Shown: piece by piece, positions 26,438-51,750 of the stretch
Layout: each line of letters starts with the position of its first letter
Numbering within the stretch: the stretch's first letter is position 1
Virus record (IMG/VR): IMGVR_UViG_3300045988_061913
Location: 1-64,000 of that record
From: a virus
Direction: 5' to 3' (one strand)
DNA: 64,000 nt
Position numbers and translations under genes: made by a program
The notes under the pieces: model-generated
What the model was told of the DNA's origin: nothing
The model's database searches: none
What the model saw: only the letters and a program-made list of their open reading frames with translations

Positions 26438-27454
26438 ATGAAGAGAATTTTTAGTATTATTTGTTTGTGTTTGATGTGTGCATTTGCTAGCGCACAAGTT
26501 GTTGAGACTGGAAGTATGAAGGATAACTGGTATATTTCTGGTAATGTTGGAACTACTATTTGGGATAACCATAGAAGTTGGGCAGAACCAAATGATGTAC
26601 TAGTAAACATTGCTATTGGTAAGGAGGTTACTCCTATCTTTGGCTTGGAGTTAGACATGATGGCTGGAATGAACCAAGGAAATAAAACATTCTTTGATTC
26701 ACATAATTTGACAGCTAACGTTACTACCAATCTTACTAACCTGATATGTGGATATAACGGAGATAGGCGTCTGTTTGAGCCTATACTAATCGTTGGTGCT
26801 GGTTGGTATCATACTTATGGAGATGTCTATAATAATGTATCCGCCCGTGGAGCCGTTAGATGTAACTTTAATATCTCTAATAGATGGGCATTAAATGTTA
26901 CTCCTGAGTATATGTTACTTCCCAAGACTTCTCCTCTGAATCATGAGTTTAACGTCTATATTGGTGCTACCTATCGCTTTAAGTCTAGCAAGGGGGACTT
27001 TCCAATTATGAAGTTGTATAGTGATGCCGAGGTTGAAAGCCTAAACGCTTCTATTAATGAGTTGAGAGCCAAGAATGAGGAACTTATGGCTCGTAAACCA
27101 ATAGAAATTGTTAAGACGGACACAATCGAAATTACTAAAGTAGAGCTTTTGACTCCAAAAATTCAATTCCTTCAAAATTCTTCAGAGATTTCTAAAACTT
27201 CCAATGTGGCTGTCTCAGAACTAGCTTCCTATATTTCTAATAGTGGAAAAACTTATGTGATTGAGGGATATGCTTCGGAAGAAGGTCCAGAAGAGTTTAA
27301 TAATAACCTTGCTGTAGCTAGGGCAGAATCTATGAAGAAGGCTCTGATTAGCTATGGTGCTCCAGAGGATAAATTGGTTGTTAAGGGATGTGGAATTACC
27401 ACTGAATTTGGAGATAATGAATTTAATCGTATCGTAATAATTTCCGAACAATGA
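26438..27454 (+). CDS. OmpA-family outer-membrane protein: signal peptide, beta-barrel-like N-domain and C-terminal OmpA peptidoglycan-binding domain
   Basis: Signal peptide MKRIFSIICLCLMCAFASAQ. The N-domain is rich in alternating aromatic/hydrophilic residues. The C-terminal YVIEGYASEEGPEEFNNNLAVARAESMKKALISYG matches the OmpA_C consensus (NxxLSxxRAxxV). Confidence 0.7.
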   Translation: MKRIFSIICLCLMCAFASAQVVETGSMKDNWYISGNVGTTIWDNHRSWAEPNDVLVNIAIGKEVTPIFGLELDMMAGMNQGNKTFFDSHNLTANVTTNLTNLICGYNGDRRLFEPILIVGAGWYHTYGDVYNNVSARGAVRCNFNISNRWALNVTPEYMLLPKTSPLNHEFNVYIGATYRFKSSKGDFPIMKLYSDAEVESLNASINELRAKNEELMARKPIEIVKTDTIEITKVELLTPKIQFLQNSSEISKTSNVAVSELASYISNSGKTYVIEGYASEEGPEEFNNNLAVARAESMKKALISYGAPEDKLVVKGCGITTEFGDNEFNRIVIISEQ

Positions 27455-28009: not shown

Positions 28010-28357
28010 ATGATGTATCTAGTAATATGCACTGTGATGGTAATCATCACGGTGCTTATCTTGAAAGATACCCATGTAACCGTTTATTACAATGGGTATA
28101 GCAGAAGTGTGGCACTTATAGAAGAAGACTATGACCTTAAAGTTCCAGTGTGGCTAGTTTTAGTAATACTAATCCTAGGATTTATCCCAGTACTGAACAT
28201 TATGCTATACACAGTAGGATATTTATTCTATATAGTTCATGCTGTGTGGAATCCAGACAAGTTGTCTGGATATACACATAAGTTCAATCTAAGAGGAAAT
28301 AATTTTCTAACTAGAATAGTGAAGAAGATATGGAAATTCTTAAATGTATGTGTATAA
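28010..28357 (+). CDS. Membrane protein (115 aa)
   Basis: ORF in the track, with two or three hydrophobic helices. Confidence 0.4.
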   Translation: MMYLVICTVMVIITVLILKDTHVTVYYNGYSRSVALIEEDYDLKVPVWLVLVILILGFIPVLNIMLYTVGYLFYIVHAVWNPDKLSGYTHKFNLRGNNFLTRIVKKIWKFLNVCV

Positions 28358-28854
28358 CACTGAGACATCTTAGGCGAATACTTAGACATAAGTTTTGGGT
28401 AGCTTATTACTGTTTTCAGTTAGGTTTATACAAACAGGGCATCTTGCACGACTTATCTAAATTCGGATGGTATGAGTTCTCTCGTTCTGTAAAATTTTAC
28501 GATGATGACACATCTCCCTTAAACAAGGAAAAAGAAATTCTAGGATATTCTAGGTCTTATTTACATCACAGAGGAAGAAATCCACACCATTATGAATACT
28601 GGGTAACTAAGCTAGACATTGGCGGTGTTCCAGTGAAGATGCCTAAAGAGTATGCTCTAGAATTGGTATGCGATTATCTGGCTGCTGGTAAAGTATACAA
28701 CGGTAATAGTTTTCAAGGAGAATATAACTGGTGGATTAAGTATATAAATTCTCCTAGGGCTATCCATCCAGAAACGAAGGAATTTATCACTCAGTGTTTT
28801 AAGAATTTAGCTAGTGGTAAAGGCATGAAAAGTTTATTAACAATTAGTTATTAA
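28330..28854 (+). CDS. Hypothetical His-rich protein with LHDLSKF and HHRGRNPHHYEYW motifs (possible metal-dependent hydrolase)
   Basis: ORF in the track; His/Asp clusters suggest metal binding, but the family was not recognised. Confidence 0.4.
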   Translation: MEILKCMCITLRHLRRILRHKFWVAYYCFQLGLYKQGILHDLSKFGWYEFSRSVKFYDDDTSPLNKEKEILGYSRSYLHHRGRNPHHYEYWVTKLDIGGVPVKMPKEYALELVCDYLAAGKVYNGNSFQGEYNWWIKYINSPRAIHPETKEFITQCFKNLASGKGMKSLLTISY

Positions 28855-28880
28855 AATAATTTTTAGAATGGAAATAATTA

Positions 28881-30407
28881 ATGCTACAGATGGTTACAAG
28901 TTGGGCCATCACAGAATGTACCCCCGAAGGTACTGAACAAGTTTATAGTAACTGGACTCCTAGAAGTAATAAATACTTCCCAGAAGCAACCGAAGGTTCA
29001 GTAGTATTTGGTAACCTAATCAAAGAATATCTCATTAAACAGTTTGAGAAAAACTTCTTTAATCTACCAAAGAAGGAAGCTGTGGAGATGTTCTATCGTA
29101 GAGTAAACAACTTTGTTGGTATTGAATCCGTTGGGTACAGACATATTGAAGCTTTATATGACCTTGGGTATCTACCAATTCGCATAAAGGCTCTTCCTGA
29201 AGGTTCTGTGTGCCCTATTCGGGTTCCCATGATGACCATTACAAATACTCTACCCGAGTTCTTTTGGTTAACTAACTACTTAGAGACTATTATCAGCTGT
29301 ACCTTGTGGATGCCATGCACATCTGCTACTAGAGCTAGGCTTTATAAGAAAGAGCTACATCGTCATGCTTGCAAGACTGGTTTTCCAACAGATGTAAATC
29401 TTGGTTTTTGTTGTCATGATTTCTCAATGCGAGGTATGGCGGGAATGGAAGCTGCAATCATATCTGGTATGGCGCATATGACTTCTTTTGTGGGAAGTGA
29501 GACTATTCCAGCTATTGCTGCCCTGGAAGAATATTATGGAGCTAATTCAGACGAGGAATTGATTGCTGCTACAGTTCCAGCAACAGAACACTCTGTAATG
29601 TGTGCTGGAGGGGAGGAAGATGAGCTGGGCACTTTCAAACGTCTAATTAATGATTTGTATCCTTCTGGGTTTGTTTCTATTGTATCTGATACTTGGGATT
29701 TCTGGAATGTAATTGAAAATTTCTTACCCAAGCTGAAGAAAGACATTATGGCTCGTGATGGTAGAGTAGTAATCCGTCCTGATAGTGGAGACCCAGTAGA
29801 TATAATCTGCGGGTTGAGAACTAATCCTCACTTCAATACCAGAATGAAAGAAGGTAAGTATTATTGCTGCTATGCTCCGTTTAACGACGATGCAGAGTAT
29901 GTTGAAGTGTCCGAAGGTCAATATTATGGGGCATATTATATGCTTGGTAAAATCTTCGGATGGAATACTACTTCAAAGGATTACCGCTATCCTAGCACTA
30001 AGGTTGGTCTGCTTTATGGAGATTCTATTACTCTAGAACGTCAAAAGCAAATCTACTTGAGATTAGAAAACGCTCATATGGCGGCTTGTAATCTCGTTCT
30101 TGGAGTAGGTTCATATCAGTATGCAAGTAGAGATAGTCTTGGGTTTGCTATTAAGGCTACTGCTTGCGTAGTAAATGGCGAGTTGAAAGAAATCTTCAAA
30201 CATCCTAAAACTGATGATGGTACTAAGAACTCTTTGAAAGGTTTGATTGCTGTCTATAAATGTCTGGATGGGAAGTATACTGCTACCGACCAGGTCTCAA
30301 TCGAGGAGGAAAAAGAGGGATGCTTAGAGACTGTCTTTGAAGATGGTATCTTGAAGAAAGAATATTCTCTTGAAGAAATTAGACAAAGAATTGACCATGG
30401 ACTTTAA
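28881..30407 (+). CDS. nadV: Nicotinamide phosphoribosyltransferase (NadV/NAMPT family)
   Basis: 508 aa with NAMPT-like blocks GSETIPAIAA, PATEHSVMCAGG, VIRPDSGDPVD and LYGDSITLE; size and motif order match the NAMPT/PncB superfamily. Confidence 0.7.
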   Translation: MLQMVTSWAITECTPEGTEQVYSNWTPRSNKYFPEATEGSVVFGNLIKEYLIKQFEKNFFNLPKKEAVEMFYRRVNNFVGIESVGYRHIEALYDLGYLPIRIKALPEGSVCPIRVPMMTITNTLPEFFWLTNYLETIISCTLWMPCTSATRARLYKKELHRHACKTGFPTDVNLGFCCHDFSMRGMAGMEAAIISGMAHMTSFVGSETIPAIAALEEYYGANSDEELIAATVPATEHSVMCAGGEEDELGTFKRLINDLYPSGFVSIVSDTWDFWNVIENFLPKLKKDIMARDGRVVIRPDSGDPVDIICGLRTNPHFNTRMKEGKYYCCYAPFNDDAEYVEVSEGQYYGAYYMLGKIFGWNTTSKDYRYPSTKVGLLYGDSITLERQKQIYLRLENAHMAACNLVLGVGSYQYASRDSLGFAIKATACVVNGELKEIFKHPKTDDGTKNSLKGLIAVYKCLDGKYTATDQVSIEEEKEGCLETVFEDGILKKEYSLEEIRQRIDHGL

Positions 30408-30826
30408 TCATCCTTTTGGGAAAGAAGCTTGCAAGAAACGACTATTAGAAGAGTATCATAAATACGGAAAGCTAATAGTCGCTTTCGATTTTGATAATAC
30501 TATTTTCGATTACCATAATACTGGCGGAGATTATAGTTGCGTTATAGAACTACTTAAAGAATGCTCACTTCTAGGTTTTGAAATGATTTTATTCACCACT
30601 GATGAAGATGATTATGGCAAAGCAGACAATTTGTATGCGATTAGGAATAGCAAATATTACTTCTAATACTTTATCTGCTCCAAACATTAGTAGTTCTATA
30701 TTCTCTAAATCTAAGAAACCTTATTACAATATCCTCCTAGATGATAGGGCAGGTCTGGAAGAAAGTTATGAAATCTTAAAATATGTAGTAGATGAAATTA
30801 AACTTAATCAACAAGGAAATCAGTGA
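30370..30826 (+). pseudogene. HAD-superfamily hydrolase split across two frames by a +1 shift (frameshifted gene or sequencing error)
   Basis: Frame A (30370-30666) carries HAD motif I FDFDNTIFD. Frame B (30602-30826) carries the motif III/IV-like SKSKKPYYNILLDDRAG. A single nucleotide shift near 30600-30666 would join them. Confidence 0.45.
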
Positions 30827-31601
30827 AATTAAGTACGATGTTACTAGATTTCCTGATGGAGAGCCTCAGTTTTTCCTTACTGAGGAATTAAACAGAAAGG
30901 AATCTATTGATGTCATTTGTAGAATATCTAATACTGAGGATTTATTCCTCTTAGTGCAAGTAGGAGATATTTTAGATAGACAAGAAGTAGAATGGGATTT
31001 ACACATTACTTATTTAATGTCTATGCGTATGGATAGAGTAATGAGTTTTAATCGTCCATTCTCCTTGAAAGTAGTATGTAATATGTTAAATAGCTTAGGC
31101 TATAGAAACATATATGTTCTTGAGGCACATTCTAGTAGAACTTTTCATCTTCTTGGTGACAGATGTTTACCTTGGGAATTTGGACACCACTCTTGGATTC
31201 CAGCCCAAAGTAATATCGTGTTCCCAGACCATGGGGCGAAGGACAGATATGGAAGTAACTATTCTCACTATGGTTATTTAGTCTTCAAAAAGGAAAGAAA
31301 TCTAGAGACTGGAAGAATTGAGTCCTTTGAAATAGAGGAGTCTAAGAATTGCTACTATTCTACATTTGTGTTCATTGATGACTTGTGTGATGCCGGAGGA
31401 ACTTTCCTAGGAGAGCTTAAGGTTCTCAAAGAGAGATATCCAAATAGCAAGTTTATCATAATCGTATGTCACGCAGTTAATGATAAAGGTCTGATTAATA
31501 TGTGTAATAATTTTGACCAGGTTATTGTATCTAATTCTCATAGGGATATTAATTATCGTCCCAGCAACGAGAACTTAACTGTAATAGACGTTTGTAAATA
31601 A
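30792..31601 (+). CDS. Ribose-phosphate pyrophosphokinase (Prs)-like phosphoribosyltransferase
   Basis: N-terminal TRFPDGEPQFFL (cf. Prs KRFSDGE) and PRPP-binding loop VFIDDLCDAGGTF (cf. Prs ILVDDMIDTAGT). Confidence 0.55.
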   Translation: MKLNLINKEISEIKYDVTRFPDGEPQFFLTEELNRKESIDVICRISNTEDLFLLVQVGDILDRQEVEWDLHITYLMSMRMDRVMSFNRPFSLKVVCNMLNSLGYRNIYVLEAHSSRTFHLLGDRCLPWEFGHHSWIPAQSNIVFPDHGAKDRYGSNYSHYGYLVFKKERNLETGRIESFEIEESKNCYYSTFVFIDDLCDAGGTFLGELKVLKERYPNSKFIIIVCHAVNDKGLINMCNNFDQVIVSNSHRDINYRPSNENLTVIDVCK

Positions 31602-48994: not shown

Positions 48995-49130
48995 ATATGC
49001 TAAAGAAAACTTATGTAAAGATTGCTTGACTTGTGCAGACTTCGGGTATTATTGTAGAGGAAATAAAGAAAGATGTAATGCGTGGAAATACGATGAAAAA
49101 GCACATTATAGAATTGATAAAGTTGTATGA
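48963..49130 (+). CDS. Small Cys-rich (zinc-ribbon-like) protein, 55 aa
   Basis: ATG at 48963 runs in-frame to a TGA overlapping the next start. It encodes CKDCLTCADFGYYCRGNKERC and is below the ORF-track cutoff. Confidence 0.3.
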   Translation: MGMTKKQIYLEYAKENLCKDCLTCADFGYYCRGNKERCNAWKYDEKAHYRIDKVV

Positions 49131-49792
49131 GTAAAGTTTTAATTATTCCAGATGTTCACGGTAGACCATTCTGGAGAAAAGCAAAAGAGAAGATTAATAG
49201 TGTGGATAAGGTAGTCTTTTTAGGGGACTACCTCGACCCATATGGTTATGAAGGTATTACTAGAGAGAATGCGATAGAGGAGTTTAAAGAGATTATCCAA
49301 TTCAAAGTTGATAATCCCGATAAGGTAATACTACTCCTTGGAAATCACGACTGTGCTTATTGCTATGATTTCGGAAGTGCTTCTAGGTATGATTACGCTA
49401 ATGCAGAGCTAATTAAGGAAATGTTTGAGAATTTCAAGTCTCTATTCCAACTCAAATACTTCTCGGAAGGTATTCTATATACTCATGCTGGAGTTACTAA
49501 TGATTGGTTAAAGAGTATGGATTTTACTATTACTGACCTAATTACTAAGCCTGAGGACTTTCTAGTTGGCTTCCTATGGGAAGTATCTCGTATGAGAGGA
49601 GGGTGGTCTAATACAGGCAGTATGGTATGGAGCGATGTCAGAGAAGGAGATAGAGAGTCTACATATTATCAAATATTTGGGCATACTCAATTGGAATCAG
49701 AACCCATTATTACTGACAAGTTTGCTTGCTTAGACGTAAGAAGACCTTTTATATTAGATACAGAAACTAAAAAGATTGAGGAGTATGCTTAA
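49127..49792 (+). CDS. Calcineurin-like metallophosphoesterase (Ser/Thr phosphatase-like)
   Basis: Motifs DVHG, GDYLD and GNHD in canonical order. Confidence 0.65.
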   Translation: MSKVLIIPDVHGRPFWRKAKEKINSVDKVVFLGDYLDPYGYEGITRENAIEEFKEIIQFKVDNPDKVILLLGNHDCAYCYDFGSASRYDYANAELIKEMFENFKSLFQLKYFSEGILYTHAGVTNDWLKSMDFTITDLITKPEDFLVGFLWEVSRMRGGWSNTGSMVWSDVREGDRESTYYQIFGHTQLESEPIITDKFACLDVRRPFILDTETKKIEEYA

Positions 49793-50897: not shown

Positions 50898-51199
50898 TAA
50901 GAAAATTTACTAACATCGTTTGTGTATATTACAACGACAAAAATTATATTCCAGCTAAGTATAATTGTCCAGACTTAGAGATTGATGATGTAATTCTCAA
51001 CCTGACTACAAACAAGGAACAGAATTATGAAAAGATTTCTGAGATTATTGTTGATTATGCCTTTGCTTTGTTCTGTAACAAATCTGATTTAAAAGATTTT
51101 TCACAAGACCATAAGAAGTATAAGAGGCAGAACTGGAAATTGCTCGACTTTAGGGAAATAATTAAAACAACAGAGATAAAACCAAAAGATCAGAAATGA
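50894..51199 (+). CDS. Hypothetical protein (101 aa)
   Basis: ORF in the track. Confidence 0.4.
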   Translation: MIRKFTNIVCVYYNDKNYIPAKYNCPDLEIDDVILNLTTNKEQNYEKISEIIVDYAFALFCNKSDLKDFSQDHKKYKRQNWKLLDFREIIKTTEIKPKDQK

Positions 51200-51750
51200 A
51201 ATATGGAGTTATTTTAGCTAGGTTTCAGCCCATTCACAATGGGCACCTAGCTTTAATTAAAAAAGCTTGTTCAGAGAACGATAAGGTTCTTTTGTTAGTT
51301 GGTAGTGCTGATAAAGTAAACAAGCGTAATCCTATTCCTATAAAGGTTAGGATAAAATTACTAGAAACTGCCTTAGAGGACGAAGGTTTACTTAGTAGAT
51401 GTATCATTCACCCTCTTAATGATTTGACTGATGAGTCTGATAACTCTCAGGATTGGGGATTCTATTTATATGCTAACATAGTTAGTATTATAAAAGAGTC
51501 CCATTTTAATATCTACTATAGCGATGGATACGAAATTATTACAACATGGTTTCCAAAGTTTATGCTGAAGGGTTATATATCAATGACTCTCATGGCAAGA
51601 GAACAGGTAGAAGAAGGTATATCGGCTACTGTTGTAAGAGATGCCCTAAGATCTAATTTAAGCCTAGAAGGACTAGTTCCTAAGTGTGTTATAGATGCAA
51701 GATTTTATTTAACTGAATTTATTTTATTACATGAAAGTACTCATAATTAA
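51196..51750 (+). CDS. Nicotinamide/nicotinate-mononucleotide adenylyltransferase (NMNAT, NadM/NadD-like cytidylyltransferase fold)
   Basis: N-terminal [14 protein letters not shown] (the (H/T)xGH nucleotidyltransferase motif) and C-terminal [11 protein letters not shown] (ISxTxxR motif). Confidence 0.65.

Follow-up and report, generated by a model that had tools for sequence, protein, structure and literature searches.

A predicted HAD-fold phosphatase gene embedded in a NARP1-type operon of crAss-like phages, and the decay of that operon in one phage genome

The 64,000-nucleotide (nt) stretch of viral DNA analyzed here (positions 1 to 64,000 of IMG/VR virus record IMGVR_UViG_3300045988_061913; hereafter, the window) contains a cluster of three genes that are likely to constitute a translationally coupled operon in the order Namat, HAD phosphatase, and Adps, making up the nicotinamide adenine dinucleotide (NAD+) reconstitution pathway NARP1 in intact relatives and a recent pseudogene cluster in the window itself. 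NARP1 is already known; what is new is the conserved HAD gene between its two enzymes, apparently an undescribed accessory component of the pathway. DNA searches showed the window to derive from a crAss-like (Crassvirales) phage, with the Steigviridae phages cr126_1 and cr111_1 and Bacteroides phage DAC15 as named relatives and the faecal scaffold MT836666 being 98.9% identical to it. A sequence-only reading had described the cluster as an NAD+ salvage module, complemented by a nicotinamide mononucleotide (NMN) adenylyltransferase (NMNAT) gene further downstream. All four genes were indeed located where that reading had placed them, each on the + strand, by Pfam, PHROG, and PDB matches, and the assignments to the NAMPT, Prs/phosphoribosyltransferase (PRTase), HAD, and NMNAT superfamilies held under profile searches. 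The genes at 28.3–31.6 kb are tightly packed, and all lie on the + strand. The reference set with which the window was compared comprised 29 near-identical IMG/VR loci and MT836666; intact relatives encode a 516-amino-acid (aa) Namat, a 141–145-aa HAD protein, and a 269-aa Adps. The features of the operon in the window are as follows.

28868–30407, + strand: Namat gene, disrupted (phmmer matches to 9W5X/9W5W; the 508-aa open reading frame is called from 28881 and lacks the native N-terminus)
28921–28925, + strand: C5 homopolymer, the +1 frameshift site (alignment to relatives L001 and L004, which have C4)
28956–28979, + strand: Namat selectivity-clamp loop region TPRSNKYF (alignment to SpβL1 Namat; rule of PMC12774641)
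29007–29024, + strand: in-frame 6-nt deletion site in Namat (TTCAAT missing between 29013 and 29014)
29493–29510, + strand: segment GSETIP of Namat, with Glu in place of Asp215 (alignment to SpβL1 Namat)
30108–30134, + strand: damaged Namat selectivity-clamp helix motif GSYQYASRD (6-nt deletion at 30113/30114)
30397–30826, + strand: predicted HAD-fold phosphatase gene, disrupted (phrog_1238; four HAD motifs)
30610–30611, + strand: junction of an 8-nt deletion in the HAD gene, with ATTATAAA gone between ATTAT direct repeats (alignment to intact relatives)
30792–31601, + strand: Adps gene, intact (phrog_619; 35-nt overlap with the 3′ end of the HAD gene)

NARP1 comprises two reactions, both demonstrated experimentally for homologues of the proteins described here: Adps converts ADP-ribose (ADPR) and ATP to ADPR pyrophosphate (ADPR-PP), and Namat converts ADPR-PP and nicotinamide to NAD+ (Osterman et al., bioRxiv 10.1101/2024.02.11.579819). 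Phage operons annotated as encoding Prs and Nampt were found in fact to encode Adps and Namat, Namat adjoins 97% of Adps-clade genes, and the pathway counters the Thoeris, DSR1/2, SIR2-HerA, and SEFIR defences (Osterman et al., 2024, bioRxiv 10.1101/2024.02.11.579819). By homology, Adps of the intact relatives would use ATP to pyrophosphorylate ADPR to ADPR-PP, and Namat would join ADPR-PP and nicotinamide directly to give NAD+, so that NAD+ split into ADPR and nicotinamide by SIR2-, TIR-, or SEFIR-type defences would be restored. The proposed link of this region to the countering of NAD-depleting defences is thereby upheld, with NARP1 as the pathway concerned.

The 508-aa open reading frame (ORF) at 28881–30407 has matches to Pfam NAPRTase (E 2.6e-30) and to phrog_448 (named "nicotinamide phosphoribosyl transferase"; E 3e-167), and is assigned on sequence grounds to the Namat clade. 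In phmmer searches, it matched SpβL1 Namat (9W5X/9W5W) with an E value of 6.5e-137 (460 bits), mammalian Nampt with about 2e-56 (about 194 bits), and Xanthomonas Nampt with 7e-53 (about 183 bits); identity to the crystallized SpβL1 Namat is approximately 60% across the aligned core. In a tblastn search of a phage database, identity was 37–50% to Bacillus, Staphylococcus, ICP1, and FelixO1-like phages having an adjacent Prs-like gene, but just 24–30% to KVP40-like and T4-like phages (for example, PVA8 and RB43), groups in which NMNAT genes were also detected. No other NAMPT homologue, including a KVP40-clade Nampt, was found in the region examined. The selectivity clamp of Namat has been described as a helix with the motif G-S-X-Φ-X-Φ-X-Φ-T-R-D, in which X is aromatic, together with a loop providing a stacking residue, either Arg or a Lys/Tyr followed by a stacking residue (PMC12774641). 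In full-length orthologues from close relatives of the window, the helix reads GS[YF]SYQYASRD, which fits the published motif with Ser replacing Thr, whereas the window copy (GSYQYASRD) is two residues short of it. In the loop TPRSNKYF, K-Y is aligned with Arg40 of SpβL1 Namat, which by alignment agrees with the loop rule. The Nampt-like catalytic core comprises the N-terminal Asp/Tyr of the partner protomer, Phe189/Arg192, a catalytic His, and Arg306/Asp308. The core motifs HDFSMRG, PATEHS, and IRPDSGD are present in the window copy, but the core is incomplete, the TDGYK segment being located in another frame.

Within the same operon, 385 nt beyond Namat, comes the 269-aa ORF at 30792–31601. 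It has a match to phrog_619 (named "ribose-phosphate pyrophosphokinase"; E 2e-51) as well as weak ones to Pribosyltran and Pribosyltran_N. As a class I ribose-phosphate diphosphokinase (Prs), it misses the curated family score, with 58.3 bits versus a TIGR01251 cut-off of 113, and it falls far under the cut-offs of all Prs equivalog models. In blastp comparisons, it scored 63–82 bits to phage Adps-type proteins versus 40 to E. coli Prs. The motifs RMDR, HS, PDxGA, KxR, and DDxxDxGGT are all retained, and many relatives encode an identical protein (100%). Based on its similarity to phage Adps, its sub-cut-off Prs score, and its adjacency to Namat, the protein is classed as a phage Adps-type Prs homologue. 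It groups with phage Adps. The right assignment is the one that the sequence-only reading offered as secondary, an ADPR-pyrophosphate synthetase like that of the alternative pathway of phages.

Compared with the described NARP1 operons, the cluster shares an adjacent Prs-like and NAMPT-like phage gene pair and, in intact relatives, the Namat helix motif and the stacking residue of the loop. It differs in gene order (Namat-X-Adps rather than Adps-Namat), in the third conserved gene embedded between them, and in the lineage's use of Glu for Asp215 and of SRD for TRD; furthermore, Namat of the window is frame-shifted with a shortened helix motif, and the pathway is probably dead here.

The embedded gene is predicted from its sequence and structural model to encode a small capless HAD phosphatase. 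Intact homologues are 133–167 aa in length, and the DxDxT motif (D31, D33, and T35), a Thr/Ser in motif II, Lys110, and Asp118-Asp119 are invariant across 30 sequences. In the window, an N-terminal fragment at 30397–30666 contains motif I (DFDNT, 30487–30501) and motif II, and the C-terminal part, in the +1 frame, contains the Lys of motif III (30713–30727) and the DD of motif IV (30737–30754). An AlphaFold2 model of the protein is confident (pLDDT 90.9) and has a HAD-like fold, with the four catalytic motifs on a Rossmannoid fold as expected of the superfamily, and its structural neighbors are nucleotidase-like. The protein has no match in Pfam (Macro included), searching the PDB by sequence returned only noise, and Foldseek searches of the PDB with the model returned nothing with E below 0.1. 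The protein scored far under the cut-off of the BT_0820 family HAD-type phosphatase (PDB 2obb; NF046079), with 20.6 versus 165 bits; a literature search on BT_0820/2OBB found no function. The database name of this gene, "phosphoheptose isomerase", is wrong. The segment between motifs II and III is the most variable stretch of the family alignment, and for the middle segment (window 30537–30692), two alleles of approximately 68% protein identity occur in 99–100% identical Namat/Adps backgrounds (L068–L072, L085, and L096 versus L044), which points to recombination or to diversifying selection on a region that faces a substrate or partner.

A family-profile search yielded 77 IMG/VR loci, of which 74 were evaluable, that is, uncut by a contig end. 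Adps was immediately beside the HAD gene in all 74, and Namat was detected nearby in 71. The Namat/HAD/Adps triad was also found in Bacillus Wphvirus phages, Phass-1, DAC15, cr126_1, and cr111_1, with the order Adps-Namat-HAD in the Wphvirus phages BPS10C and Zuko; Lak megaphages have HAD-Adps. In bacteria, Adps and/or Namat were found within 5 kb of the HAD gene in 49 of 67 loci, the order being Namat-HAD-Adps in Flavobacteriia, HAD-Adps-Namat in Cohnella and Paenibacillus, and Adps-HAD-Namat in Saprospiraceae. Genes near the bacterial clusters include that of NrtR (8–9 of 57 ORFs) and those of NADAR, ADP-ribosylglycohydrolase, PnuC, and NadR, and one phage HAD locus has an Acb2/Tad1-like gene. 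Since the linkage is kept across phyla and gene orders, HAD and NARP1 appear to be functionally coupled. No member of the HAD family was found fused to Adps, Namat, or Macro; one member is fused to GIY-YIG, probably through a gene-call fusion.

Several of these loci are of interest in themselves. On the chromosome of Paenibacillus psychroresistens (L162, 4181–9369), the order NrtR-HAD-Adps-Namat-PnuC-NadR looks like a regulated operon for recycling ADPR to NAD+, and an NrtR-type Nudix/winged-helix regulator adjoins the bacterial triad also in L127, L133, L143, and L148. In L128 (3693–4232) and L164 (4897–5460), both Saprospiraceae metagenome-assembled genome (MAG) contigs, the Adps/HAD/Namat cluster encloses a gene with a NADAR domain (Pfam E as low as 4e-53), a further accessory gene linked to ADPR. 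In Phass-1, a code-15 gut phage (L035, OQ749652, 881–5319), genes for PncA (isochorismatase), a Prs-like protein, a NAMPT-like protein 33% identical to crAss Namat, HAD, and NadE lie in succession, which hints at a nicotinate/deamido-NAD version of the pathway.

The closest precedent for the embedded gene is NARP1-AP. In 15% of NARP1 operons, a Macro-domain phosphatase, Adpp, is also encoded, and converts ADPR-1″-phosphate, the product of the RES-domain defence aRES, to ADPR, thereby enabling NARP1 (bioRxiv 10.64898/2026.01.28.702374). Both systems are three-gene operons with an embedded phosphatase-type gene, and Saprospiraceae share the order Adps-phosphatase-Namat. However, HAD and Adpp are unrelated in sequence and fold: the former is a HAD fold with DxDxT and an aspartyl-phosphate intermediate, and the latter is a Macro domain (Poa1p-like), to which the middle gene has no match. 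The HAD gene is not mentioned in the NARP1-AP preprint (bioRxiv 10.64898/2026.01.28.702374), a literature search found no description of a HAD gene within NARP1, and a search on crAss nicotinamide phosphoribosyltransferase returned unrelated papers only. A HAD protein in the Metis paper was rejected as a match, being a component of that defence and unrelated to this gene.

From the analogy with Adpp and the ADPR-centered neighbors, a role on ADPR phosphates is proposed as the likeliest one. Judged from gene context, HAD would turn a phosphorylated ADPR that NARP1 cannot use into ADPR, with ADPR-1″-phosphate (from RES-type NADases) or a derivative of ADPR-cyclic phosphate, an ADPR-PP breakdown product, formed by opening of its ring, as candidate substrates. 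That HAD dephosphorylates an ADPR phosphate to ADPR seems to us a plausible proposition falling a little short of an even chance.

In the window itself, the working pathway assumed by the sequence-only reading is not found, both Namat and HAD being disrupted. Relative to the intact locus L004, four indels were detected, all inside these two genes. The true start of Namat is the ATG at 28868, and intact orthologues begin with MEIINATDGYK. One extra C (C5 rather than C4, 28921–28925) shifts the frame after codon 19, so that the upstream frame terminates at 28934–28936 and the 508-aa ORF opens with 15 out-of-frame residues. Because of this +1 frameshift, the ORF lacks the TDGYK segment and, with it, the equivalents of Asp13 and Tyr15, residues that line the nicotinamide pocket of the partner protomer. 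Two losses of 6 nt follow: that of TTCAAT (29013/29014) changes FGIQYLIK to FGNLIK, and that of TATTCC (30113/30114) shortens GSYSYQYASRD, the sequence of the lineage, by "YS". In the HAD gene, the 8-nt deletion at 30610/30611 separates motif II from motif III, leaving fragments at 30370/30397–30666 and 30602–30826, which lie in different frames, both match phrog_1238, and jointly align to one intact 141–145-aa gene of relatives. The frameshift described for the HAD gene was thereby confirmed; that in the NAMPT-like gene had been missed. Because Namat and HAD are disrupted and Adps is the only operon gene left intact, NARP1 is very probably non-functional in the window genome.

Independent lesions were found in about 9 of 30 evaluable close relatives. 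The C5 allele is shared by contigs L010 and L012, neither of which has a further operon lesion. Namat has an AGA-to-TGA nonsense mutation at codon 16 in L021 and is truncated in L009; in MT836666, 186 nt are deleted in frame from the C-terminus of Namat and approximately 176 nt from HAD, the deletions of L029 and L031 are of kb scale, and L014 has a HAD frameshift at the C-terminus. Adps is broken in one locus only (L029). In L013, L016, and L023, the HAD ORF is intact with a GTG start. In several loci at a greater distance (L076, L079, L082, L094, and L099), the match to Namat extends across just a portion of the query, and distant Namat orthologues have CCA or CCG at the position of the C-run, and no run. 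A single in-frame stop lies inside the HAD orthologue of a more distant viral contig (L114, 5214–5216), which could be a nonsense mutation or reflect stop-codon recoding of gut phages.

Beyond the three genes of the operon, the following features of the window are relevant.

51196–51750, + strand: stand-alone NadM-type NMN adenylyltransferase-like gene, intact (PDB/NCBIfam matches, motifs)
49127–49792, + strand: calcineurin-like metallophosphoesterase gene, between NrdD and an NrdG-like gene and approximately 1.4 kb upstream of the NMNAT gene
28330–28854, + strand: DUF5662 gene directly upstream of Namat (Pfam DUF5662, E 1.5e-28)
26438–27454, + strand: gene for a protein with an outer-membrane beta-barrel domain and an OmpA domain (each with a Pfam E value near 1e-10), 1.4 kb upstream of the cluster

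The 184-aa ORF at 51196–51750 encodes a cytidylyltransferase-like protein. The solved proteins that match it best are all NMN adenylyltransferases, namely MJ0541 (1f9a, E 9e-10), Methanobacterium NMNAT, the Francisella/Synechocystis NadM-Nudix proteins, and NadR, and its best NCBIfam models are NMNAT families, under their cut-offs (NF002243, 57 bits). The motifs RFQPIHNGH and ISATVVR (RFQPxHxGH and ISxTxxR) are present. The gene is flanked by genes for NrdD, the metallophosphoesterase, an NrdG-like protein (assigned by eye), dUTPase, and an ATP-dependent ligase; because it sits in this nucleotide-metabolism block, it is placed outside the NARP1 operon. It is 84–100% conserved and uninterrupted in more than 45 contigs carrying the NARP1-HAD cluster, including those with broken Namat. 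From its sequence, the protein could make NAD+ from NMN independently of NARP1; sources of NMN are a matter of speculation, and may be a side activity of Namat, the host, or defences cutting NAD+ into NMN and AMP, such as Metis. The class of calcineurin-like metallophosphoesterases, to which the neighboring gene belongs, cleaves NAD+ in the Metis defence system. NARP2, consisting in KVP40 of Nampt and the NadM-Nudix Nmnat, resembles the present arrangement in that an NMNAT-like protein is encoded, the window's NadM-type one being 24–30% identical to the NMNAT domain of phage NadM-Nudix, but no KVP40-clade Nampt was found in the region examined and the NMNAT-like protein has no Nudix domain. 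The window's lineage pairs NARP1 (plus HAD) with a stand-alone NMNAT, whereas no phage with both NARP1 and NARP2 was reported in the NARP1 paper (bioRxiv 10.1101/2024.02.11.579819).

Other functions have been considered for these proteins. The sequence-only reading favored a canonical, self-sufficient salvage route resembling NARP2, in which the Prs homologue would supply phosphoribosyl pyrophosphate (PRPP), the NAMPT homologue (as NadV) would form NMN, and the distant NMNAT would complete NAD+. The co-conservation of an intact NadM-type NMNAT with the cluster and the names "NAPRTase" and "ribose-phosphate pyrophosphokinase" given by Pfam and PHROG would fit such a route, but the NAMPT homologue is a member of the Namat clade, with the motif for ADPR-PP selectivity present in its orthologues, the Prs homologue scores under the TIGR01251 cut-off, the assayed SpβL1 Adps acts on ADPR with reportedly no Prs behavior, Namat offered both substrates has been published to yield NAD+ only, and Namat is disrupted in the window genome. 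Because NARP1 needs neither a PRPP supply nor an NMNAT, the salvage route is not the best model of this locus and appears improbable; for the same reason, the module is not split into two loci 20 kb apart, as had been proposed, the NMNAT gene being a separate one. Against the NARP1 assignment stands the Glu found throughout the lineage's Namat (GSETIP in the window) at the position of Asp215, which in SpβL1 Namat hydrogen-bonds nicotinamide and whose replacement (D215A) cuts activity 8-fold according to the published Namat work; the substitution might alter base specificity. As for HAD, a different NAD-linked or nucleotide role, such as dephosphorylation of NADP+ or 2′-phospho-ADPR, a 5′-nucleotidase activity (on NMN, AMP, or dNMP), or removal of a by-product (PPi), is rather unlikely but has points in its favor, which count against an ADPR-phosphate role: in two distant members of the family, HAD is joined to a nucleoside 2-deoxyribosyltransferase-like domain, hinting at nucleotide/nucleoside chemistry, the structural neighbors are nucleotidase-like, and 18 of the 67 bacterial homologues have no NARP1 gene nearby. 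Against such a different role, HAD is linked most tightly to Adps, which handles ADPR (all 74 evaluable loci, Lak phages having just HAD-Adps), no Macro domain was found among the scanned neighbors, which in HAD-bearing operons were the best 25 neighbor families, the bacterial neighbors NrtR, NADAR, and ADP-ribosylglycohydrolase are ADPR-centered, an NMN- or AMP-degrading nucleotidase would oppose NAD+ rebuilding, and the ADPR-1″-phosphate phosphatase embedded in NARP1 (NARP1-AP) is a direct precedent. A broader reading, somewhat less likely than not, is that HAD is a widespread, unrecognized third component of NARP1 in phages (crAss-like, Lak, and Bacillus Herelleviridae) and in NrtR-linked operons of bacteria, analogous to Adpp, with which, together with NMNAT, intact members of the lineage could rebuild NAD+ after all three modes of immune cleavage known: to ADPR and nicotinamide, to ADPR-1″-phosphate and nicotinamide, and to NMN and AMP.

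The lesions in the window have likewise been open to other explanations. If they were sequencing or assembly errors, the operon of the real phage would be intact, and a single homopolymer base, as in C5 versus C4, is a classic error type. Set against this are the 6-, 6-, and 8-nt deletions, which are flanked by short repeats and atypical of read errors, the different lesions in other contigs (a nonsense codon, and 186-nt and kb-scale deletions), the downstream 4 kb, which has 0 indels relative to L004 and L011 and one relative to L017, L025, and L028, and the Logan assembly of SRR6028313, which carries the window haplotype with 100% identity across 3171 nt, although it may derive from the same sample. 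In view of the clean downstream flank and the identical Logan haplotype, sequencing error is very improbable, with the possible exception of the homopolymer. CCC-C is a +1 slippery context, CCC-N being shift-prone for tRNA-Pro, and the C5 run (CCC-C, then CGA) could accordingly be read as a programmed or tolerated +1 frameshift site at which full-length Namat is made, the more so as C5 occurs in three separate contigs, two of them (L010 and L012) with no other operon lesion. Yet most relatives are in frame with C4, distant orthologues have no run at all, and more damaging deletions have built up in the window allele, as would be expected once function is lost, making such a site extremely improbable. 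Loss of NARP1 in the window is nonetheless weakened as a conclusion by the catalytic His and Arg/Asp retained in the 508-aa ORF, which may have residual activity, and by slippage at CCC-C, which might still yield small amounts of full-length Namat. Recoding of stop codons, a known trait of crAss-like phages, was rejected as the cause of the split genes, the lesions being indels relative to intact relatives.

The DUF5662 protein encoded directly upstream of Namat carries an HDLSKF-type motif. Its homologues occur near the NARP1-HAD cluster throughout the window's crAss-like group and only there, in L114 between HAD and Adps, and are absent from the NARP1-HAD clusters of Bacillus phages and bacteria; no solved homologue was detected by sequence. 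Being limited to one crAss-like group and lacking a detectable solved homologue, DUF5662 was set aside as a fourth pathway gene, and its membership of the operon is uncertain.

Depletion of NAD+ is among the commonest anti-phage strategies of bacteria, and NARP1 is the main known phage counter-measure. If the proposed role of HAD is true, a second, unrelated phosphatase family in NARP1 would extend the NARP1-AP principle and point to Bacteroidota defences that produce phosphorylated ADPR. Bacterial versions lying beside NrtR, which regulates NAD metabolism, point to an ordinary route for recycling ADPR to NAD+ that includes the HAD phosphatase. For annotation, the names "NadV", "Prs", and "phosphoheptose isomerase" are all misleading for these genes. 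The relevance of such a phosphatase family would be greatest for the crAss-like phages, which dominate among the viruses of the human gut, and for Lak megaphages. Namat and HAD have been inactivated repeatedly and independently in wild phage populations, which amounts to a natural experiment on the costs and benefits of anti-defence genes and, if the proposal holds, such frequent natural knock-outs would show the module to be costly or dispensable when hosts lack the corresponding defences.

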